The notes beneath the pieces were generated by a model. It had not been told where the DNA came from, ran no database searches, and was given only the letters and a program-made list of their open reading frames with translations. A stretch of 23,486 nucleotides of DNA from contig NZ_JAIHOM010000078.1 of the NCBI RefSeq assembly GCF_026130165.1, positions 1 through 23,486 of the forward strand, written 5' to 3'. This stretch comes from Spirulina subsalsa FACHB-351 (GTDB lineage: Bacteria > Cyanobacteriota > Cyanobacteriia > Cyanobacteriales > Spirulinaceae). The position numbers and the translations under genes are program-made. Of this stretch, positions 4,410 to 14,816 are shown piece after piece (position 1 is the stretch's first letter; every line of letters starts with the position of its first letter).

Positions 4410-5174
4410 ATGGCGATTATCGCACTACGAGCGTGGTATGTAGAAGATTATGAACCGATTCGGGAAATTGTGAAACGTCCCCATGATTTGCGGCTCAGTC
4501 GCAATAGTTTGTTAAAGTCGGGACTGCGGGCGGATTTCCTTGATGATCGGGTGGAGGTGGAAACGTCGGACTGGTTTGGGCGTTATTTGGCGGGGGAGAC
4601 GGTGGAGTTTTACCTTGAGGGGAGTGGATGTTATGCCATTTCTAACATTGATTTGATTTCTCAGGAAATTTATTTTACTAAGCTGGACAGTACGACGGCG
4701 TTAGATCCGGTGATTTTTTTCAGTTACCAACGGGAGTATCCCCCCGCGAGTGAGATGATTCGGGAAGCGTTGGAGGAGGCGATCGCAAAACTCAATGAGC
4801 GATCGCGCCATCCCCTCATCCTACAACTCGCCCAACGCCCCACCGAGGCTCCCCTCCGTTTAAGTTCTCAACAATTACGGCAAATTCGCAAAAGTTTATT
4901 AGTGATCTTTGATGGCAGCCCAGTTTCTTCCTTGGCAGGAGACAAAACCCCTCAACTCCTCCTCAGTCCAGTCGTCTGCGCAGAATTGGGCTATGCCTTA
5001 AACCATAAGCGTTCTGGCCAGATGTTGCTCCTCCAACAAGAGCGCTTAGAGGGTCAAATGCCCTTTGACCTAATGAACCTGCAACAGGTATCATTTAAGA
5101 CTGCCCATGAACTTAAAAAAACCCTCCCTCCTCTGTTGCAAACCCTGCTACAGCCTTTGCATCTTGTGGGCTGA
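4410..5174 (+). CDS. Hypothetical two-domain protein (254 aa); the C-terminal half shows a TIR/nucleoside-deoxyribosyltransferase-like strand-helix pattern
   Basis: ATG start with AAGGGGG 7 nt upstream. The C-terminal half carries VIFFSYQRE..., ...SLLVIFDGSP... and ...SPVVCAELGYALNHKRSGQMLLL. The fold assignment is pattern-based only. Confidence 0.7.
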   Translation: MAIIALRAWYVEDYEPIREIVKRPHDLRLSRNSLLKSGLRADFLDDRVEVETSDWFGRYLAGETVEFYLEGSGCYAISNIDLISQEIYFTKLDSTTALDPVIFFSYQREYPPASEMIREALEEAIAKLNERSRHPLILQLAQRPTEAPLRLSSQQLRQIRKSLLVIFDGSPVSSLAGDKTPQLLLSPVVCAELGYALNHKRSGQMLLLQQERLEGQMPFDLMNLQQVSFKTAHELKKTLPPLLQTLLQPLHLVG

Positions 5175-5251: not shown

Positions 5252-5503
5252 ATGCCAAGAAAACCAGACGAATATGTCGTCTTTATTTTATTGTCCACGG
5301 GACACCGTGAAGAGGTTCGTTTTAACAGTATTCAGGAGTTCCAGAAATGGTACAGTGGGGAGTTTATCCCTAAAGCGAATGATGATACCTTCATCAGTGT
5401 CCCTATTAAAAACCTACAAGGGGAATACATGGTGCTGCGTCCCAACTGTGTAGCTGCCATCCGTGTTGAACCCGTGTTTGGAGGCAGTGTGGAACGGTAT
5501 TAA
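5252..5503 (+). CDS. Hypothetical small protein (83 aa)
   Basis: ATG preceded by AAGGAG (5238-5243) at 8-nt spacing, with protein-like composition. I prefer it to the overlapping ORF 5175..5453. A strong terminator follows. Confidence 0.6.
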   Translation: MPRKPDEYVVFILLSTGHREEVRFNSIQEFQKWYSGEFIPKANDDTFISVPIKNLQGEYMVLRPNCVAAIRVEPVFGGSVERY

Positions 5504-5592: not shown

Positions 5593-5868
5593 GTTCTGCT
5601 TAGGGGTTTTTGTTCTGCTTAATTGGTTTGCATTATCACAAAAAAAATTTTTGTCAAGGGATACAAAGAGGATAAACTCTTGTATAGTTTCGTATAGTTT
5701 TGTAGCACAAGATTTCCCCGAAGTAATATCTCATCCTTGTGGGTCTATTGCTGGAGTGGGAGGATGAAATTCCCCAATTTTGGAACAATCTCAGAAGTTT
5801 GCGGATCAAATACCCCTACTGTCTGAACAATGATTCTGAACACCAACTAAAGATTATTGAACTCACCG

Positions 5869-7038
5869 ATGAAAAAAACACTCACACTATTTGCGTTAGG
5901 TTTGGGGCTGGCGATGGGAATGCCCCAAGTGCCACTCCAAGCCCAACAAGCCCCTCTTACTTGGTCAAATCCCCATCGTCAAGCTCCCAATTTAGCGTTA
6001 GATGAGCAACTGTGGGGCAGTTTAGGACAACCGGGGGATAAACAGGCGTTGATTCGATCCATTGACCACAGTTTGCGTTATTTAGACACCCCGGCCGCTG
6101 CCCGAGCGTATCAAAATTATCCCATTCGTTGGATTACTCGCGATCGCGTCCGTCGATCCCTGCAACGCTTCCGCCATCTGGTACTCACCAGCAACAGTCC
6201 TCAAGAATTACAAGCAGCCGTTAAACGGGAATTTGTCTTTTACAAATCTATAGGCAGTCCGCGCTACGGTGGACAAGTATTCTTTACAGGCTATTACGAA
6301 CCCACTTATCCAGCGAGTCGTGTTCGGACTCCCGAGTATCGTTATCCCCTCTATCGTCGTCCCAGCAGCTTAGAAAGCTGGAAAGCTCCCCATCCCAGTC
6401 GCGCTCAACTCGAAGGGGCCGATGGCACGGGGAAAGATAGCATTTTAGCGGGTTATGAATTGGTTTGGTTGCGCGATCGCCTTCAAGCTTTCCTCGTTCA
6501 AGTTCAAGGTTCCGCCCGTCTGCAATTAACCGATGGTAGCACCATGACCGTAGGTTTTCACGGCAGCACCGATTATCCCTACGTCAGCGTAGGACAAGAA
6601 ATGATCAAAGATGGGCTACACCCGGCTGATGGCTTCACCCTGCCCAAAATGATCAACATCTTCCAACAAAACCCCGACCTGCTCAACGTTTATATTCCCC
6701 GGAACAACCGCTTTATTTTCTTCCGAGAAACCCACGGCGCACCGGCCACCGGGAGCATTAGCGTCCCCGTAACCCCCGACCGTTCCATTGCCACCGATAA
6801 ATCCCTGATGCCCCCGGGAGCTCTCGCCCTCATCCACACCCGTATCCCCTTCCCCGATGGTCAAGGAGGTATGATTACCCCCGAGGTGAGCCGCTTCGTG
6901 TTAGACCAAGACACCGGAAGCGCCATCAGAACCCCCGGTCGAGTGGATGTGTTCATGGGAACTGGCCCAGTAGCAGGCGATCGCGCTGGTGTCATGGGAT
7001 ATCGCGGAGCCCTGTACTATCTCATGTTAAAAGAATAA
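5869..7038 (+). CDS. mltA: Membrane-bound lytic murein transglycosylase A family protein (MltA + 3D domains)
   Basis: The track ORF starts at a TTG at 5857. The ATG at 5869 gives the signal peptide MKKTLTLFALGLGLAMGMPQVPLQAQ. Motifs FFTGYYEP, LVQVQGSARLQLTDGS and DQDTGSAIRTPGRVDVFMGTG match the MltA/3D family. Confidence 0.85.
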   Translation: MKKTLTLFALGLGLAMGMPQVPLQAQQAPLTWSNPHRQAPNLALDEQLWGSLGQPGDKQALIRSIDHSLRYLDTPAAARAYQNYPIRWITRDRVRRSLQRFRHLVLTSNSPQELQAAVKREFVFYKSIGSPRYGGQVFFTGYYEPTYPASRVRTPEYRYPLYRRPSSLESWKAPHPSRAQLEGADGTGKDSILAGYELVWLRDRLQAFLVQVQGSARLQLTDGSTMTVGFHGSTDYPYVSVGQEMIKDGLHPADGFTLPKMINIFQQNPDLLNVYIPRNNRFIFFRETHGAPATGSISVPVTPDRSIATDKSLMPPGALALIHTRIPFPDGQGGMITPEVSRFVLDQDTGSAIRTPGRVDVFMGTGPVAGDRAGVMGYRGALYYLMLKE

Positions 7039-7175
7039 GGGCTTGCGGAATAACTCTACTCGTGGGGCTAGGGAATTGATAATTGATAATTGATAATTGT
7101 CAATTATCAATTGTCAATTGATAATTTCTCCCCCGCTCCCCTACTCCCCTACTCCCCGAGTTATTGAGTAAGCCC
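7039..7175. repeat. 137-bp imperfect palindromic (MITE-like) copy of the composite repeat element
   Basis: The left end is GGGCTTGCGGAATAACTC...GGGG. The reverse complement of the right end is GGGCTTACTCAATAACTCGGGG. The interior holds GGGAAT, TGATAAT x3, the central palindrome GATAATTG-T-CAATTATC, and then C-rich CTCCCCTA units. Confidence 0.85.
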
Positions 7176-7359
7176 TAGGTATTTTTTGGGGCGTAAATTT
7201 TGGAGGATTAATTGTTTCCGAGAGAATCTCCTACCATTAACATTGAGGGATAAACGGGTGCTACCTTTAACAAAATGTTGCGGAATTCCCCTTCCTCGCC
7301 AACGGCAGGGTGGGGTAGTTCACACCGATCCCCAACCTAACGAACCAGTTGATGTGGTA

Positions 7360-8652
7360 ATGCGTGATTCTTACGGTACACGGCGCGGAAGTGCCTTCCT
7401 ACTCTTGTTGCTCTCCCTAACCTTGGGTGAAGTGATCCTTGGGGCTAGTCGCCTTGAGGTCATTTCTGGTTCTAGGATCGCGATCGCCCAAACGCCTAGC
7501 CCAGAAACTAGTCCCACTGAAGATTCCGAGGCCGCCAATGAGCCGAAAATTGAACCAGGAAGTGAGGGGGTCATTGTCCGAGAATTACAACAACATCTGA
7601 AGGAATTAGGGTATTACGAAGAAGAACCCGACGGTGTTTATGGGGCTTCCACAGAGGCCGCCGTGCGAGCCTTCCAAGAAGCCGAAGGCCTAGAACCTAC
7701 TGGCGTGTTTGATGCTCAAGCTTGGATTCGGATGCAAGAAATCCGCAATCCCAGACCGGAACCCCAGCCCCAGGAACGAGGACGCATTAGCCGCCGGGCG
7801 TTAGCTGTAATTGGTTTGGGCGGCTTAACCACATTGATTGGGATGGCCATTGGCATTTTTCTGATCCTCAAATTTTTAGCCCAACGCGCTCAAGACCAAG
7901 AATTTGCGGTGCAAACAGAGATCGGTTCAGAACGTTACCCCGATTACGAACAAGACCCCTCCAATAATCATTCTAAATTTGTCACCCTACAACCCGAGTC
8001 CCCCCCCACTCAACCCTTAAATTTAGATCCTCCGATCCTTTCAGAATCCCTCTTAGAGGATGCTTGGTTAGCGGATTCTGTTCTGCCTCCCCCTCCAGCA
8101 AAACCAGAACCTTTAGAAGAAGTCGCCCTAGAAGAAGTAGCCGAGGCAGAAAACCCCTTACCCACCAATCCTCCCATCACAGCATCCCCTCCGGAAATGA
8201 CCATTAAACCCGCCGGACGTTTAGTTAAACTGGATTTGATTGAGGAATTAATCGGAGATTTGCGATCGCCCAATCTCGAAAAACGCCACAAAGCCATCTG
8301 GGAACTCGCCCAACGCGCCGACTCTCGCGCCGTGAAACCCCTCGTCGGCCTGTTAATTGAATCCGACTCCCAACAACAAACCCTCATCCTCGAAGCCCTG
8401 TCTCAAATTGGCACCCGCACCCTCAAACCCATGAACCGTGCTTTAGCCCTATCCCTACAAGACGACAACGCCCAAGTGCGGAAAAATGCCATTCGTGACC
8501 TCACACGAATGTACGAATTAGTCGCCCAACTGAGTCAGTTAGTCTACTATGCCACCGATGATCCAGATCCCGAAGTGCAAAACACCGCCAAATGGGCCCT
8601 GAAACAACTCAACCAAATTCGAGTCTTACCTGATGATCAGCCCTCTAGCTAA
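7360..8652 (+). CDS. Peptidoglycan-binding-domain / TM / Pro-rich / HEAT-repeat protein
   Basis: The track ORF starts at a TTG at 7186. The ATG at 7360 gives MRDSYGTRRGSAFLLLLLSLTLG, a signal or anchor sequence. A PG_binding_1-like segment follows (VRELQQHLKELGYYEEEPDGVYGASTEAAVRAFQEAEGLEPTGVFD). Next are a TM segment (ALAVIGLGGLTTLIGMAIGIFLILKFL) and a Pro/Glu-rich linker (PPPPAKPEPLEE...). The C-terminus has PBS-lyase-type HEAT repeats (LRSPNLEKRHKAIWELAQRADSRAVKPLVGLL..., DDNAQVRKNAIRDL..., DPDPEVQNTAKWALKQL). Confidence 0.8.
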   Translation: MRDSYGTRRGSAFLLLLLSLTLGEVILGASRLEVISGSRIAIAQTPSPETSPTEDSEAANEPKIEPGSEGVIVRELQQHLKELGYYEEEPDGVYGASTEAAVRAFQEAEGLEPTGVFDAQAWIRMQEIRNPRPEPQPQERGRISRRALAVIGLGGLTTLIGMAIGIFLILKFLAQRAQDQEFAVQTEIGSERYPDYEQDPSNNHSKFVTLQPESPPTQPLNLDPPILSESLLEDAWLADSVLPPPPAKPEPLEEVALEEVAEAENPLPTNPPITASPPEMTIKPAGRLVKLDLIEELIGDLRSPNLEKRHKAIWELAQRADSRAVKPLVGLLIESDSQQQTLILEALSQIGTRTLKPMNRALALSLQDDNAQVRKNAIRDLTRMYELVAQLSQLVYYATDDPDPEVQNTAKWALKQLNQIRVLPDDQPSS

Positions 8653-8677
8653 TTTCGTCCTCTATTGTCATTAATCC

Positions 8678-10072
8678 ATGTCCCTGTCCAGAAAAGCCAG
8701 CTACGAACGCCAAGAACTTGATGTTCCCTTTTTCCTTGTTATTTTTGCCGCCCTTTCTCTACTTATTGGGATTTACCTGTTAGCTTTACCCTTTCAGGAG
8801 ACGTATTTAGGCAGTTTGATTTACGATCGAGGATTCACCCAACCCCTCACCCTCTTTCTGGCCGGAATGGTGATTAGTGTGGTGATCTTCAAATACCTTA
8901 AACTGACCGCAGAATCCAGCGCCATCGGCAAAAATTGGATTCCCGATGGCATTGATTTAGAAGATCCCAACGGACGTTCAATTAATAACCTCATCGCCAG
9001 TTTAACCAACTCGCGGAAACTGATCGCGGTGCGTTGTTGCCGCGTTCTTTATGCCTATACCCAATCCGGTAGTCGCAAAACCGCCAGCGAATTAGCTTTA
9101 GATGATTCCGCCTTTTATCTCAGTGCCTCAGAAAGTTCCTATACAATCCCTCGGATTTTGGTCTGGGCGATTCCTCTATTGGGGTTTATTGGGACTGTAA
9201 TCGGCATTAGTCAGGCCGTGAGTGGGTTTTCCGGTTTTCTGGAGCAAGCGGGGGAAATTGACCAAATTCGTACAGGAATCGGCACCGTCACCAGTGGGTT
9301 AGCGGTGGCCTTTGATACCACTTTGTTGGCTTTGTTTTTGAGTGTGGTGGTGATGATTCCCTTGGTGTTGGTGGAACGGTGGGAGTCTCGTTTGTTGTTG
9401 TCTATTGATGTGTATATCAATGATCGTCTTTTACCAAAATTTAGAGATTCCGAGACTTCTGGGGGATTTTTGTCTGAAACGGCGATCGCCCAAGCCGTAG
9501 AAAAATCCCTCAAAGAAAACCTACCCCAACCCAAAGACCTCATCGAACCTGCCCATATTTACGCCCAGAAATTAGTGGAAGCTTTAACCCAAAAATTTGT
9601 CCAAGAAATGGGGTCAATTCAAACCGCGAATAGTCAACTCATCCAGCAAGTAAGTCAAGTAAATCAGGCGACTTTACAAGACCGTCAAGACTTTCTAACT
9701 GTTTTTAATCAACAACAAGAACAGCAGAAAGATATTGTCGAGTTAATTAAAAATAGCGTAGAAGAAATTAAGCAGGGTAACTTAATTGTGGCTCATGGTT
9801 TAGCCCAACAAGCCCACGAAATCACCCAACAACTCAATCAAGCGGCTGTCTTATTAGGGGATAGGGTGGAAGCTTTAGAACAATCAACCTTACAAGTTTC
9901 CCAAATTATTGAACTGCAAAAAAGTTTAGATCAAATGTTAAACTCTTTGGAGAAAACAGCACAGTTAGAGCAATCTTTAGCCGGGTTAAGGGTTGCCCTA
10001 ACTCAATTACAGCCCATCTTAACCCAGTTACAAAAGCCTCGTAAAATTATGTTATTGGAGCAAGATAATTGA
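8678..10072 (+). CDS. MotA/TolQ/ExbB proton-channel family protein with a long C-terminal coiled-coil tail
   Basis: 464 aa, starting 25 nt after the upstream gene. Two N-terminal TM helices are followed by the family signature pair PLLGFIGTVIGISQAV and GLAVAFDTTLLALFLSVVVMIPLVLV. Residues from about 255 to 464 are Gln/Leu/Glu-rich with heptad-like spacing (QLIQQVSQVNQATLQDRQ..., ALEQSTLQVSQIIELQKSLDQMLNSLEKTAQLEQSL). Confidence 0.85.
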   Translation: MSLSRKASYERQELDVPFFLVIFAALSLLIGIYLLALPFQETYLGSLIYDRGFTQPLTLFLAGMVISVVIFKYLKLTAESSAIGKNWIPDGIDLEDPNGRSINNLIASLTNSRKLIAVRCCRVLYAYTQSGSRKTASELALDDSAFYLSASESSYTIPRILVWAIPLLGFIGTVIGISQAVSGFSGFLEQAGEIDQIRTGIGTVTSGLAVAFDTTLLALFLSVVVMIPLVLVERWESRLLLSIDVYINDRLLPKFRDSETSGGFLSETAIAQAVEKSLKENLPQPKDLIEPAHIYAQKLVEALTQKFVQEMGSIQTANSQLIQQVSQVNQATLQDRQDFLTVFNQQQEQQKDIVELIKNSVEEIKQGNLIVAHGLAQQAHEITQQLNQAAVLLGDRVEALEQSTLQVSQIIELQKSLDQMLNSLEKTAQLEQSLAGLRVALTQLQPILTQLQKPRKIMLLEQDN

Positions 10073-10087
10073 ATTTTTCCCCGTTCG

Positions 10088-10207
10088 TTGTTGGTTCGTT
10101 GTTGGGCTTTAGCCCTTAAATGCGCGCTGAAGCGCAACTACAAACGGTTGTTGGTTCGTTGTTGGGCTTTAGCCTTTAAATTCGCGCTGAAGCGCAACTA
10201 CAAACGG
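10088..10207. repeat. Two tandem copies of a 60-bp hairpin-containing unit in the intergenic spacer
   Basis: 10088-10147 and 10148-10207 differ at 2 positions. Each unit holds the hairpins GGGC-TTTA-GCCC and GCGC-TGAA-GCGC. Each is bounded by the imperfect inverted repeats CCGTTCGTTGTTG and CAACTACAAACGG. Confidence 0.9.
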
Positions 10208-10248
10208 CAACGACAAACAAACTTGTGCTGAACTATTAAGTTTTTAAA

Positions 10249-10710
10249 ATGTCCCGTCGCTCAACCTTACATCGTAAATCCTATGAAGTGGAATTATTTC
10301 CCTTCTTGTCCGTTTTAGCCTGTACCATTGGCACCCTGATTTTACTGATTATTGTCATCACTACCCAAACCTTTAGCGAAGACAAAGAAGTAAGAATTAT
10401 TGCCCGCACCGAAGACGGACAAAATCAACGGAAAATTCCCCGCTATATTGACTGTCGGGGAGATGGCATTGTATTACATCCTCAAGAAACCTTTATCCCT
10501 GCCAATGAAATTAATCAACGTAATCGTGAACTAGCACAATTATTGTCAGAAGTCAAGGCAAATCAAGAACGGGAATATTTAATTGTTGCCGTGCGACCCA
10601 GTGGCATTCAAGTTTTTAATCAGGTGCGGGATTTAGTAGAAGCGCAAGGGATAGATTTAGGCTACGAACCCATCGAAGAAAACTGGACATTACGCATTGA
10701 AACCCCATGA
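10249..10710 (+). CDS. Divergent ExbD/TolR-like single-pass membrane protein (TM Asp replaced by Ser)
   Basis: 153 aa. The N-terminal segment VELFPFLSVLACTIGTLILLIIV aligns by eye to the ExbD motif INVTPFIDVMLVLLIIF, with Ser at the Asp position. The C-terminal domain follows an ExbD-like pattern (DGIVLHPQ...EYLIVAVRPSGIQVFNQVRDLVEAQGIDLGYEPI). Confidence 0.65.
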   Translation: MSRRSTLHRKSYEVELFPFLSVLACTIGTLILLIIVITTQTFSEDKEVRIIARTEDGQNQRKIPRYIDCRGDGIVLHPQETFIPANEINQRNRELAQLLSEVKANQEREYLIVAVRPSGIQVFNQVRDLVEAQGIDLGYEPIEENWTLRIETP

Positions 10711-11414
10711 GACATAGACGCAAAGTAGGGACTCGTCAAAGCCCCCAACAAAACCTAGATTCATTCTTAGATATTCTCACCAATACCGTGGGCGTGTTGA
10801 TGTTTATTGGGCTATTTGTGGCTTTGCTTTCTGTGGAATCTGGCAATATTATCCGCACTCCTTTAGTTTCAGCCAGTGTGAAAAATGCCCAGTTTTTTGA
10901 AGTGCGCAATAATCAAGTTTTTTATCTCGATAATCCCCGAGTAGAAAATCAACTCACTTGGATGATTGAAAACTTACCCCCCTGTTATGAACCGGATCTT
11001 CCCCGCACAATGGACTCGGTAGAGTTTGATTTTTATTATCGTCAACTCCAAGAATATGAGCGCTGTCAACGGTCGCGTTTACAACAACTTCAAGGCTATC
11101 AAGTGAGTACCGATTATTATGAGGCTCATTTTGATGTAGAGGGTTTTGTCACGATTTATCAACCTCGTCCTAATGTTACCGGATCCACCCTCAGCGCCAT
11201 TGGCAGCGATGAATCAGCATTCAAACGGACTCTAACCCGTTTAGATAACCAACAGGATTATTTAGCCTTTTTAGTGCGTCCTGATAGTTTTGCGGCGTTC
11301 CGACAAGCGCGTAAAGTGGCTTGGGAACAGGGGTTTGATGTGGGGTGGGAACCCTTATCTCAACAACGGACTATTGCTTTCGGCTCACGAGGTCGTTCTA
11401 TTGGAGTACAGTAA
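10707..11414 (+). CDS. Divergent ExbD/TolR-like single-pass membrane protein (TM Asp retained), paralog of the upstream gene
   Basis: 235 aa with an ATGA start/stop overlap on the upstream gene. QNLDSFLDILTNTVGVLMFIGLF aligns to the ExbD motif with the Asp conserved. The C-terminal DYLAFLVRPDSFAAFRQARKVAWEQGFDVGWEPL parallels EYLIVAVRPSGIQVFNQVRDLVEAQGIDLGYEPI in the neighbour. Confidence 0.65.
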   Translation: MRHRRKVGTRQSPQQNLDSFLDILTNTVGVLMFIGLFVALLSVESGNIIRTPLVSASVKNAQFFEVRNNQVFYLDNPRVENQLTWMIENLPPCYEPDLPRTMDSVEFDFYYRQLQEYERCQRSRLQQLQGYQVSTDYYEAHFDVEGFVTIYQPRPNVTGSTLSAIGSDESAFKRTLTRLDNQQDYLAFLVRPDSFAAFRQARKVAWEQGFDVGWEPLSQQRTIAFGSRGRSIGVQ

Positions 11415-11564
11415 TCCGTGACTGTTAACCGCTCCCCGCTCTTGCCTACTTTCGGCAGGAAGCCCGCGCTGTACTGGTTGGCGAGGCCTGCCGGAAGGCA
11501 TAGAGTCAGCGTCGGGTACTTCACTCTTGATTTAAGTGCCGGTCCTGAGAAGGGGGGAATTGCT

Positions 11565-11672
11565 TTACAGGGAGCGGGCAAACACTTGCCACATGACGAA
11601 AAATGCAAAGGCGAGATAGCCTAAAACTGCACATAAGTCAAGCCATTGGGGGTTAATTGCGATGATATTCAT
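11565..11672 (-). CDS. Candidate 35-aa hydrophobic small protein (MNIIAINPQWLDLCAVLGYLAFAFFVMWQVFARSL)
   Basis: Hand-translated and below the ORF-track length cutoff. The ATG at 11672 is preceded by GGAGGA (plus-strand TCCTCC, 11682-11687) at 9-nt spacing. It predicts one TM helix and ends at a TAA at 11565-11567. I recognise no homology. Confidence 0.35.
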   Translation of the reverse strand: MNIIAINPQWLDLCAVLGYLAFAFFVMWQVFARSL

Positions 11673-12115
11673 AGGGAGTCATCCTCCATTGTGCTTTGCA
11701 GATCACGAGCGGGCAAAGGGGCAAGGGAAAAATTCAAGGGATTTCAAACTTTCCAAACCATCTCAACCCATTTCAAATTTTTACAAGGTAGTTGTTTGAG
11801 TGTCACCACACACCGTCAGTCTATCCTTTGTGTGGCAGATTCCAAAAAGAAATTTCTCGTCGGAATGAGAACGGGTGAAAGCCGAAGGAGAGGAATTGTA
11901 ACAGTTACAGTTAGAATGCTCAAGAATTCGCCATTTTTAACGTTAGATTGAAACCCAACGGGGGTGAACGACTAACAGAGCAACCACTTATTGTACCACA
12001 AAGGGTAAGTTTTTGTCCGTCTACTATTCAAGATACAACAGGGAAAGGGAAAGTTCCGGTTATTTAGAAAATTTTGGGTTTTTCTGCTCCTATCCTGGGG
12101 GGAATGGGGAACTGT

Positions 12116-14680
12116 TTACGGTTTAGGGGAGGGTTGACCGATGGCGATTTTACTGTGTTTCTCAATTTCTCCCATGACTTGACGAGCGCGGTCAATGACG
12201 ACGGAGGGTAAACCGGCCAGTCTTCCGGCTTCGATGCCATAGGAACGGTCAGCGCCTCCGGGTCGGACTTGGTGTAAAAAGAGGATACGGTCGGGGAGTT
12301 CTTTGACGGTGACTTGATAGTTGGCGACGTTGTTGAGGAGGGATTCTAGTTCGTTGAGTTCGTGGTAGTGGGTGGCGAAAATGGTGCGTGCTTGGATTTC
12401 GGTGGCTAGGTATTCGGCGACGGCCCAGGCGATGGATAAACCGTCAAAGGTGGCGGTTCCCCGCCCAATTTCGTCGAGTAGGATGAGGGATTGGGGGGTG
12501 GCATGGTTGAGGATGTTGGCGGTTTCGTTCATTTCGACCATGAAGGTGGATTGTCCGGTGGCTAGGTCATCGACGGCCCCCACTCGGGTAAAAATGCGAT
12601 CGCAAATGGCCAAGGTTGCCGATTCGGCTGGAACAAAGCTACCAATTTGGGCTAACAGTTGAATGAGTCCGACTTGCCGCAAATAACAGCTTTTTCCACT
12701 GGCATTGGGTCCGGTGAGAATAATTAAATCGGGATGATTATTCTGGGTTCCACTGCCGAGGGTGGTGGAGTTGGGAACAAAAAAGTTTAACCCCAAGGCT
12801 TTTTCTACTACGGGATGGCGACCATCTCGGATGGTGATTTCCCGGTTTTCGGTCATCATTGGACAGCAATAGTTCTGTTCTACGGCAATTTCGGCCAGTC
12901 CGGCTAACACATCAATGGCGGCGACGGCTTTGGCGATTTGTCGGATTTCTTGCCCTTTTTCGGCCATTTCTGCCCGCAATTCGCTAAAGATTTCATACTC
13001 TAATTGATGAAGATCATCTTTGGCGGTTAGGATGCGGGTTTCTCGTTCTTTGAGTTCTGAGGTAATGTAGCGTTCTTCGTTGGTTAAGGTTTGTTTACGG
13101 GTGTAATTATCGGGGGCTTGTGCGGCTTTGGCACGGGGCAAACTAATATAATAACCAAAGGTTTTATTATATCCGACTTTTAAGTTAGAAACTCCGGTTC
13201 TTTCTCGTTCGGTCACTTCTAAGTTAGCTAGCCATTGTTGATCGAGTTCCAATTGTTGGCGGCGTTCATCTAAGAGGGGGTGAATCCCATCCCGAATTAG
13301 GCCCCCTTCTTTGAGGTGTTGGGGGGGAGATTCGACTAAATGGCGCAGGATGTGCTGTCCGAGTTGTTCTAATTCCGGGGGGACTTTTTGCAGGGCTTTG
13401 AGATAAAGTGATTTGCCTTTCTGAACTAATTCGCTCAGGACGGAAAGACGACAAAGGGAGTCGGCTAAATACACTAAATCTCGGGCGTTGGCTGTGCCTG
13501 CTCCCACGCGGCCACTGAGTCGTTCTAGGTCGTAAAATTGCCGTAATAATTGCCGTAATTCGTTGCGTAAATAGGCGTTATTTATTAACTCTTGAATGGT
13601 GTCTTGACGGGCGCGAATGCCTTTGATGTCGAGGAGGGGCTGTAATAACCAACGCCGTAGGGCGCGCCCTCCCATGGCGGTGACGGTTTGATCAATGGCC
13701 CAAAGTAGGGAACCGTTTAGGGTGCCGTCGCGCACGGTTTGCAGAATTTCTAAATTGCGCCGGGTTTGGGGGTCTAGGATTAGGTAATCGGTGAGGGTAT
13801 AGGTGCGGAGGGGTTGGAGGGGGACTTGATTGGCTTTTTGGGTGTCTTCGAGATACTCTAATAGCCCCCCAGCTGCGCGAATGGCAAGGGTTAGGTCGGC
13901 ACAGCCCATTCCCTCTAAGGACTTGACGTTAAATGTCTCTATGAGCCGATTTTGGGCTTCTGAGGCGCGAAAATACTGCTGGGGACGGAGGGAGTAACAG
14001 AAGCAGTCGGGGAGGTAGTTGGGGAGGTCTTGGCGGGCTTCTCCGGGGCGCAGGAGTCCGCCTAAATCCGGTGCGTCGGTGGGGAGTAGGATCTCGGAAG
14101 GCTGGAGACGCATGAGTTCTAGGGTGAGGGCTTCGAGGTCTTGGGATTGGGTGGTGTAGAATTCTCCGGTGGAGATGTCGGCATAGGCGAGGCCCCAATG
14201 TTCTTTGGCGACGACGACGGAGGCTAAAAAGTTATTGCGACGGGCGGCTAACATTCCATCGTCGGTGAGGGTGCCGGGGGTGAGGAGGCGGGTGACTTGG
14301 CGTTCTACCATGCGACGTTCGGCGGCGGCTTGGGAGGCTTCTTCGACTTGATCACAAATGGCGATCGCATACCCTTTTTCGACTAAGGTGGCAACATAGC
14401 GATCTAAGGCGTGGTGCGGCACTCCGGTCATACAAACGCGACCGATTTCTTTGCCCCCTTCTTTACTGGTTAACACTAATTCCAATTCTTGGGAGATGGT
14501 GACGGCATCCTGAAAGAAGCACTCAAAAAAGTCCCCACAACGGTACAAAACTAAGGCGTTGGGATATTGTTCTTTGACCTCAATGTAGTGCTGCATCATG
14601 GGGGACAGTTTATCCCGGTCTAGGGGACGGTAATCACGTTGAGGGGCATTTTTCGATCCGGTTTTGGCAGTCTCACTCAT
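12116..14680 (-). CDS. mutS: DNA mismatch repair protein MutS
   Basis: All MutS domains are recognisable, including the mismatch-binding N-terminus ([30 protein letters not shown]), the Walker A motif GPNASGKS, and [12 protein letters not shown]. The track ORF extends to 14743 with a non-ATG start. The first ATG, at 14680, gives MSETAKTG... Confidence 0.97.
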
Positions 14681-14816
14681 GAGGGATTGTAGGCAGGTGC
14701 AATTAAGGAAGATTTTAGGAGGGCTGGGGGATCTGGGCAACAAACCCTAGGGGGTATGCGTCTAAAATCACAGAAAACCCGTTAAGATTCAAAGGGAATC
14801 GGTGGATAGGGAGATC

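Follow-up and report, generated by a model that had tools for sequence, protein, structure and literature searches.

A conserved three-gene unit in Spirulina subsalsa and other bacteria that may encode a MotA/ExbB-type membrane motor with two unlike B subunits

Ion-driven motors of the 5:2 type power flagella, Ton/Tol transport, gliding, type IX secretion and Zorya defence. In a 23,486-nt stretch of DNA from Spirulina subsalsa FACHB-351 (contig NZ_JAIHOM010000078.1; here called the window), an earlier note made from the sequence alone had proposed an envelope motor module of four genes, g1 to g4, lying next to mltA (Table 1). We found that the conserved unit is the g2-g3-g4 trio, not four genes plus mltA, with g2 encoding a tailed channel protein of the MotA/TolQ/ExbB family (the A subunit) and g3 and g4 encoding two paralogous small membrane proteins (B1 and B2). 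In the reading that we prefer, and to which we give a probability of about 0.6, the trio would be self-contained and would encode a membrane motor of the MotA/ExbB 5:2 type that runs on ions, probably protons, and whose axle is asymmetric and whose output is cytoplasmic. This reading builds on the family and fold to which A belongs, on B1 and B2 being paralogs, on the conservation of individual residues and on the synteny of the trio.

Gene order was compared by tblastn and clustering of open reading frames (ORFs) in 80 cyanobacterial genome loci around g2 homologs, 71 of which had room downstream and 61 of which reached 3 kb or more upstream. A second set, of 79 metagenome loci, was collected around g4 homologs, and 53 of these had room for upstream A and B1 genes. 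The order g2-g3-g4 on one strand was present in 64 of the 71 genome loci, with B1 directly after A in 70 of them, and A plus B1 were found upstream of B2 in 41 of the 53 metagenome loci (a count that includes L169 and L170, which fall under the identity filter; the filter alone gives 39). Synteny in other cyanobacteria therefore held for the trio but not for g1: neither g1 nor mltA lay upstream of the trio in any of the 61 genome loci, and near the B2 homologs of the 79 metagenome loci g1 was never seen and mltA only once, 3 kb downstream. The claimed four-gene module next to mltA thus failed the synteny test, and anchoring to peptidoglycan (PG) through g1 is not a general feature of the trio, since g1 is missing beside it outside S. 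subsalsa. The corrected locus boundary encloses three genes rather than four plus mltA.

No further gene was conserved beside the trio, either by ORF clustering or in a Pfam census of 132 upstream and 124 downstream neighbours, from which the 25 commonest families were listed; together these analyses cover about 150 loci. The commonest families were response regulators (12), ABC_ATPase (7), Uma2 (7), histidine kinases (6) and peptidase M16 (5). TonB, TonB_C, TonB-dependent receptors, OmpA and Pal were all lacking among the listed families, in line with the earlier statement that no TonB, OmpA or Pal partner gene is present, and the same was true of PG_binding, LysM, SPOR, flagellar and Glt-type gliding families ('Glt-type' being shorthand for the Myxococcus Agl-Glt partners). 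Chemotaxis-like neighbours (CheW, MCP, Hpt) occurred in 4–5 loci; as candidate partners these genes, like those for response regulators, histidine kinases and Uma2, were rejected, because they recur in related genomes only and not across lineages.

The A subunit belongs to the MotA_ExbB family. In a Pfam scan, g2 scored 31.3 bits against PF01618 (cut-off 22.9) over residues 148–229, and P166, G169, G172, T173 and the D213-T214-T215 triplet are invariant in 41 homologs, so that the last membrane helix carries an acidic residue (D213) together with Thr residues. The MotA/TolQ/ExbB signature helices that had been read in g2 are thus borne out by a score above the family cut-off, by the invariant P..G..GT and by the Thr-bearing last helix. 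An NCBIfam scan at E up to 1 gave no equivalog-level match to ExbB, TolQ, MotA or ZorA, the sole match above noise being to ZorA_2 (22.7 bits against a cut-off of 100, E = 4e-5). Together with the lack of TonB, OmpA and Pal among the listed neighbour families, this agrees with the claim that the set matches none of the named systems; with no NCBIfam ExbB match and no TonB neighbour family, nothing placed g2 in a canonical ExbB clade beside TonB, the outcome that the earlier note had named as speaking against its proposal. The AlphaFold2 (AF2) model of g2 (predicted local distance difference test, pLDDT, 77) was compared with the PDB using Foldseek, and all 50 of the 50 best matches were A subunits of 5:2 motors (ExbB, TolQ, MotA, PomA and ZorA). 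ExbB and TolQ were the best of these, with template-modelling (TM) scores of up to 0.57 on the target, and ZorA fitted less well. A sequence-profile search of A against the PDB found no motor protein, the tail giving coiled-coil noise only.

Four hydrophobic segments were identified in g2 (residues 19–37, 53–74, 160–178 and 214–232), and the ~230 residues beyond the last of them (233–464) make up the long tail that had been claimed for this protein. By family topology the tail would be cytoplasmic. It is drawn in the model as one continuous helix from residue 286 to 448, shows a hydrophobic periodicity of 3.4–3.6 residues, and ends in a tip, L.P.L..L.KPR.I.L.E, that is likewise invariant in the 41 homologs.

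The two B proteins are end-to-end paralogs (hhalign of the B1 against the B2 family: probability 97.9%, E = 4e-13), each with a single hydrophobic segment, and the C-terminal motif noticed earlier in both, VRP..F..R...G.D.G(Y/W)EP, is real. Neither g3 nor g4 gave a Pfam or NCBIfam match at E up to 1, PF02472 included, and searches of PDB sequences with the B1 and B2 family profiles found no ExbD or TolR chain and no motor protein. The family assignments made earlier for the four proteins were accordingly recovered for g2 (MotA_ExbB) and g1 (PG_binding_1 and HEAT_2) and not for g3 and g4, for which there was no ExbD match. Their likeness to ExbD is read instead from the motif in the N-terminal membrane helix, from their position after a MotA/ExbB gene and from the predicted fold of B1, the AF2 model of which (pLDDT 76) had the periplasmic domain of Escherichia coli TolR as its top PDB match in Foldseek (5by4, E = 1.9e-3, probability 1.0), the matches that followed being ten times weaker and to unrelated proteins.

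The membrane helices set B1 and B2 apart. B1 has an invariant LFPFLSxLACTIG, which in the family alignment puts Ser at the position of the canonical Asp of ExbD, TolR and MotB; hhalign likewise aligned Ser21 with TolR Asp23, though weakly (E = 0.004), over the membrane helix only and with an approximate TolR query. The corresponding comparison of B2 with TolR and ExbD, again with approximate E. coli query sequences, was not significant. In B2 the invariant helix sequence is QNLDSFLDILTNTVGVLMF, which has FLD (D22) plus D18, and D18, D22, N26 and G29 do not vary across phyla, even among non-cyanobacterial relatives that share only ~30% identity. Of the ExbD-like N-terminal motifs claimed for both proteins, that of g4 has the Asp and that of g3 has Ser in its place. 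Across 128 superfamily representatives the residue at the B1 Asp position is Ala in 46, Ser in 40, Asp in 17 and Asn in 5, and B2 keeps both Asp throughout. B2 also has a periplasmic insert of ~75 residues with two invariant Cys, and a conserved G.xxGVQ at its C-terminus.

Solved ExbBD, TolQR, MotAB and ZorAB complexes provide the basis of analogy for how the trio might be assembled. A pentamer of the tailed A subunit would surround a heterodimeric axle of B1 and B2, in which the ion-path carboxylates would lie on B2 only, as an Asp18-Asp22-Asn26 stripe, with B1 as a non-protonatable partner. This stripe, facing Thr and Asp residues of the A helices, would form the ion path, and at the periplasmic end would lie the TolR-like domains of B1 and B2. 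On the cytoplasmic side, the helical tail of A (~230 residues) could then act as an output or input lever, ~160 residues long. Such a layout would be closer to ZorAB than to Ton/Tol because of this cytoplasmic lever, the output of Ton/Tol systems being periplasmic.

Several points weigh against this assembly and against the trio as a self-contained unit. We infer the 5:2 stoichiometry, the B1/B2 heterodimer, the use of ions and the role of the tail, and Pfam, NCBIfam and PDB profile searches gave no significant match of either B1 or B2 to ExbD, TolR or MotB sequences. The fold match of B1 to TolR is weak (TM score 0.38 on the query, 0.51 on the target). B1 is present without an adjoining B2 in 6 of the 71 genome loci, about eight metagenome loci carry orphan B2-like genes, and a Synechocystis-like metagenome-assembled genome (MAG; L092, 8001–9908) has an A gene alone with no adjoining B1 or B2. 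Finally, g1 stays with the trio in a block that is kept in two Spirulina strains while the flanks differ (see below), which could reflect a local functional link between g1 and the trio.

As observations on these loci, the orphan B2-like genes (L155–L157, 7001–7657; L137, L143, L147 and L150) are 36–49% identical to g4 and have no A or B1 gene within 7 kb upstream; the one in L155 comes after cofD and a DUF3177 gene (checked with Pfam), and L156 has the same ORF lengths. The A homolog of the Synechocystis-like MAG is 635 aa long and has an internally duplicated tail, as does that of Gloeothece PCC 7424 (627 aa).

The family reaches well beyond Spirulina. With a profile built from g3 homologs, 2,886 representative clusters (50% identity) were matched at E ≤ 0.001, of which 1,101 reached E ≤ 1e-10; ten sampled members had no Pfam match, and many matches are proteins of 450–970 aa with two or three copies of the periplasmic domain. 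Three distant members (P0253 in L085, P0277 in L086 and P0264 in L087) are encoded between a tailed MotA_ExbB gene (448–628 aa) and a g4-like gene, in trios that are ~30% identical to the Spirulina proteins and on contigs that are apparently non-cyanobacterial, and the A tail of the L085 trio ends in a tip like that of g2 (..L.QLSRPR..RLIEE). For a fourth (P0250 in L084), on a 1.3-kb contig, only a g4-like gene was visible after B1. One of the non-cyanobacterial-looking contigs carries large multihaem cytochromes. The giant B1-type proteins (P0260, P0277 and ~60 others, 450–970 aa) carry the B1 membrane helix, in which Ala takes the place of the Asp, together with a long coiled coil, Pro-, Gly- and Ser-rich linkers of low complexity, and two or three TolR-like domains; P0277 (L086, 6001–8370) comes after its tailed MotA_ExbB gene on a non-cyanobacterial-looking contig.

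Within cyanobacteria the distribution is patchy, with roughly 500–600 clusters at 90% identity. Carriers include baeocyte formers and the unicellular Microcystis, Crocosphaera, Gloeothece and Geminocystis, and copies of the trio lie on plasmids of Anabaena cylindrica PCC 7122 (pANACY.03, L091) and Microcystis aeruginosa NIES-2481 (p1, L090). Between Microcystis and Cylindrospermopsis raciborskii, which belong to different orders, the A subunits are 88% identical, and identity at this level across orders indicates, on sequence grounds, horizontal transfer. No relative of the trio was found in IMG/VR viral contigs. The searchable literature yielded no description of the family; surveys of 5:2 motors list many non-flagellar homologs of unknown function with assorted extensions, and the trio is not described there (PMC12505986).

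A wider interpretation, which we offer tentatively and regard as possible rather than probable, is that the trio stands for a class of 5:2 motor that is widespread and has gone undescribed. Such a motor, its axle asymmetric and its working end a coiled coil in the cytoplasm, would couple envelope events to the cytoplasm, possibly in phage defence, instead of energising the outer membrane. To our knowledge, each new branch of 5:2 motors has so far brought a new use of the same rotary core. The trio unites traits that are unusual in combination: the tail on its A subunit, two B subunits that are obligately different, with the ion-binding carboxylates on one of them, and B proteins that Pfam and NCBIfam models do not see, as a result of which genomes annotate them as hypothetical. 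If the axle is indeed asymmetric, the trio would be a natural test of whether rotation needs carboxylates on both B subunits. The trio is not established as a new functional system; its putative asymmetric axle and its tail merit specialist attention.

An unlikely alternative is that the trio is a Zorya-like anti-phage or envelope-surveillance system, the tail of which signals to effectors encoded nearby or elsewhere. As in Zorya, the A subunit is MotA-like and extends into a long helical tail on the cytoplasmic side, and the only PADLOC families matched by A and its ~30%-identical relatives were ZorA models (E from 1e-8 to 1e-5; for g2 against ZorA1, E = 1.4e-8 and 31.9 bits), some of the alignments reaching into the tail. 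This match is a weak pointer because PADLOC has no other MotA-like model, which makes a ZorA match partly the default outcome; the ZorA_2 match in NCBIfam, although it points the same way, falls far short of its cut-off, and by fold ExbB and TolQ are closer than ZorA. The trio also differs from Zorya in having two different B genes in place of one ZorB, in having no OmpA-like or ZorB-type PG-binding domain in g3 or g4 (Pfam), and in its much shorter tail, ZorA models running to 505–1063 positions. Genomic context also speaks for this alternative, in that both plasmid copies sit in defence islands: the pANACY.03 trio is immediately preceded by a type III-B Cmr operon and the gene for a CARF-HEPN Csx1, with a viperin gene near, and the Microcystis p1 trio lies between an HKD-Snf2 helicase gene (a weak ZorD match) and a DUF559 nuclease gene, with a methylase gene and an NTase-SLATT pair adjoining. 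Csx1-like genes were found upstream of the trio in at least six Nostocales loci, and the horizontal transfer indicated by the Microcystis and Cylindrospermopsis A subunits would suit a defence system. Against this, the trio lies among housekeeping genes in most loci, that of FACHB-351 included (fmt, mltA, mutS, pyruvate kinase), and these lack a conserved effector; no conserved ZorC, ZorD, ZorE or ZorF/G was found in the ~150 loci, an adjoining HKD-Snf2 helicase being seen only on the Microcystis plasmid, and the defence contexts may come from one or two mobile islands. Genes for HNH and GIY-YIG proteins are also present in the Microcystis p1 island.

A role in iron uptake, with the trio as a divergent ExbB-ExbD-ExbD energiser served by a TonB encoded elsewhere, appears improbable as well. 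As in ExbBD and TolQR, the A subunit belongs to MotA_ExbB, has an acidic residue and Thr residues in its last membrane helix and is followed directly by genes for small, N-in, single-pass B proteins, and in fold A comes closest to ExbB and TolQ. One A gene followed by two different B genes is also found in the Xanthomonas-type operon tonB-exbB-exbD1-exbD2, which may give B heteromers; that operon has a tonB gene and encodes canonical ExbD as its B proteins, whereas the trio has neither. Further differences from ExbBD and TolQR are the four hydrophobic segments of A, instead of three, the ~230-residue cytoplasmic tail, which Ton/Tol A subunits lack, the missing NCBIfam ExbB/TolQ match, and two divergent B paralogs without a PF02472 match, of which B1 has no Asp and B2 has the Asp-Asp-Asn stripe. 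Moreover, no TonB, TolA, Pal or TonB-dependent transporter was among the commonest neighbour families of the trio, and its plasmid copies lie in defence islands.

The most specific argument for iron uptake comes from Synechocystis, where sll0477-sll0478-sll0479 form one transcription unit annotated 'ExbB-like protein / HP / HP' that is induced 6.7-fold by iron limitation (PMC4195498); exbB, exbD3 and exbD4 are the names given to these genes, for which a Fur box has been reported in PCC 6803 (PMC8634477). The pattern of one A gene and two B genes that escape naming resembles the trio, which makes sll0477-79 a candidate counterpart and a candidate ortholog only. Anabaena alr4587 (exbB2) is another candidate ortholog. 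If the link to sll0477-79 is true, one of the three 'ExbBD' systems to which iron uptake in Synechocystis is ascribed would need a new label. A search seeded with the Microcystis A subunit found, from Synechocystis, only the homolog in the 'Synechocystis sp.' MAG, which, as described above, has no adjoining B genes. Fur-box-like matches upstream of 75 g2 homologs were not enriched over random windows (scores of 11.7 and 11.5 respectively), and a Fur-box-like candidate operator in the window, an AT-rich palindrome at 7074–7125 between mltA and g1, agrees with the Fur 19-mer consensus at only 11 of 19 positions and has 9 of the 14 positions of the 7-1-7 motif. The palindrome is also strain-specific, being missing from the same mltA-g1 spacer in S. 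subsalsa PCC 9445. Fur or iron control through this element was therefore rejected. The element itself consists of AT-rich 7-nt units (TGATAAT, TGTCAAT, TATCAAT) that form a 20-bp inverted repeat whose arms match at 19 of 20 positions, and it overlaps a promoter-like TTGTCA-17-GATAAT.

The original proposal, a four-gene PG-anchored motor (g1 plus the trio, with MltA) for gliding or for septum or envelope remodelling, is very unlikely. In its favour, the short g1-g2 gap has no terminator-like site, the PG-binding domain and HEAT repeats of g1 could in principle supply anchoring and bind the tail, and the block from mltA to g4 is the only stretch common to FACHB-351 and PCC 9445, both flanks being different. 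Against it, g1 and mltA are lacking beside the trio in the genome loci and g1 in the metagenome loci, PG_binding, OmpA, LysM and SPOR are not among the commonest neighbour families, unicellular taxa that do not glide have the trio, as do plasmids, and two strains of a single species are weak evidence of linkage. A PG-anchored gliding motor survives only as a Spirulina-specific possibility. The parallel drawn earlier with AglR-AglQ-AglS of Myxococcus holds for the gene count, one TolQ-like A with two TolR-like B proteins, and not for the link to gliding. In that motor AglR has no such extended tail, both AglQ and AglS belong to the ordinary ExbD/TolR family, and Glt gliding proteins work with the complex; the B proteins of the trio, in contrast, have no PF02472 match, no Glt-type family is among its commonest neighbours, and its carriers include non-gliding unicellular cyanobacteria and plasmids. 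A MotAB-like stator is likewise not suggested, given that Pfam finds no OmpA-like domain in g3 or g4 and that no flagellar family is among the listed neighbours.

The four plus-strand ORFs of the FACHB-351 window have exactly the positions and spacings given in the earlier note (Table 1): 25 nt between g1 and g2, 176 nt between g2 and g3, and an overlap of 4 nt between g3 and g4. The repeat insertion claimed for the 176-nt gap is present as two tandem units that are 97% identical, and the same-strand MltA gene claimed upstream is confirmed by Pfam (MltA, E = 8e-46; 3D, E = 1e-18), its match to NCBIfam PRK11162 (E = 4e-36) lying under the cut-off of that model.

Table 1. Coordinates of the trio and of adjacent features in the Spirulina subsalsa FACHB-351 window.
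Feature	Position	Strand	Description
mltA (membrane-bound lytic murein transglycosylase A)	5857..7038	+	Pfam MltA and 3D domains
g1	7360..8652	+	430 aa; reading frame open from 7186
g2, A subunit	8678..10072	+	464 aa; MotA/TolQ/ExbB-family channel
Tandem 60-nt repeat, two units	10087..10206	.	Most of the g2-g3 gap
g3, B1 subunit	10249..10710	+	153 aa; N-in single-pass, with predicted TolR/ExbD-like periplasmic alpha/beta domain
g4, B2 subunit	10707..11414	+	235 aa; B1 paralog

The architecture described earlier for g1 agrees with the Pfam matches and hydrophobic segments. A signal or transmembrane segment (residues 11–29) is followed by PG_binding_1 (72–124, E = 2e-20), a transmembrane helix (156–174), a Pro-rich linker and C-terminal HEAT repeats (HEAT_2, 365–424, E = 5e-12), a layout in which PG_binding_1 is predicted to be periplasmic and the HEAT repeats cytoplasmic. 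The complete mltA-g1-g2-g3-g4 block is common only to the second S. subsalsa strain, PCC 9445, where g1 is 87% identical. By blastn, FACHB-351 5641–11413 is homologous to PCC 9445 L081 3090–8797 at 87–92% identity, from ~216 nt before mltA to the g4 stop codon, and the flanks are unrelated (fmt and mutS in FACHB-351; a FecR-domain gene and ndhF/ndhD-like genes in PCC 9445). That the five genes travel together within S. subsalsa is mild evidence of a local link, and the 25-nt gap suggests that g1 is possibly co-transcribed with the trio in Spirulina; across lineages, g1 and mltA are Spirulina-specific neighbours that lie outside the conserved module.

The 60-nt repeat of the g2-g3 spacer varies in copy number, from two in FACHB-351 to three in PCC 9445 (L081 7396–7632), and the array contains two small GC hairpins. 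In other lineages the spacer is a short gap or holds unrelated simple repeats of heptamer type, and the repeat is thus no conserved element of the trio module; a conserved RNA or regulatory element in this gap was rejected given these unrelated repeats and the lack of an Rfam match. Between the g4 stop codon and that of mutS, which lies on the minus strand (12116–14743), ~700 nt (11415–12115) contain no convincing ORF and gave no Rfam match. Upstream of mltA, two plus-strand ORFs (4410–5174, 254 aa; 5252–5503, 83 aa) had no Pfam, NCBIfam or PADLOC match and fall outside the block common with PCC 9445. The remaining genes of the window are housekeeping ones, encoding a peptide-binding protein, tRNA-Leu, Fmt, MutS, pyruvate kinase, an epimerase, a CitMHS transporter and an aminotransferase.

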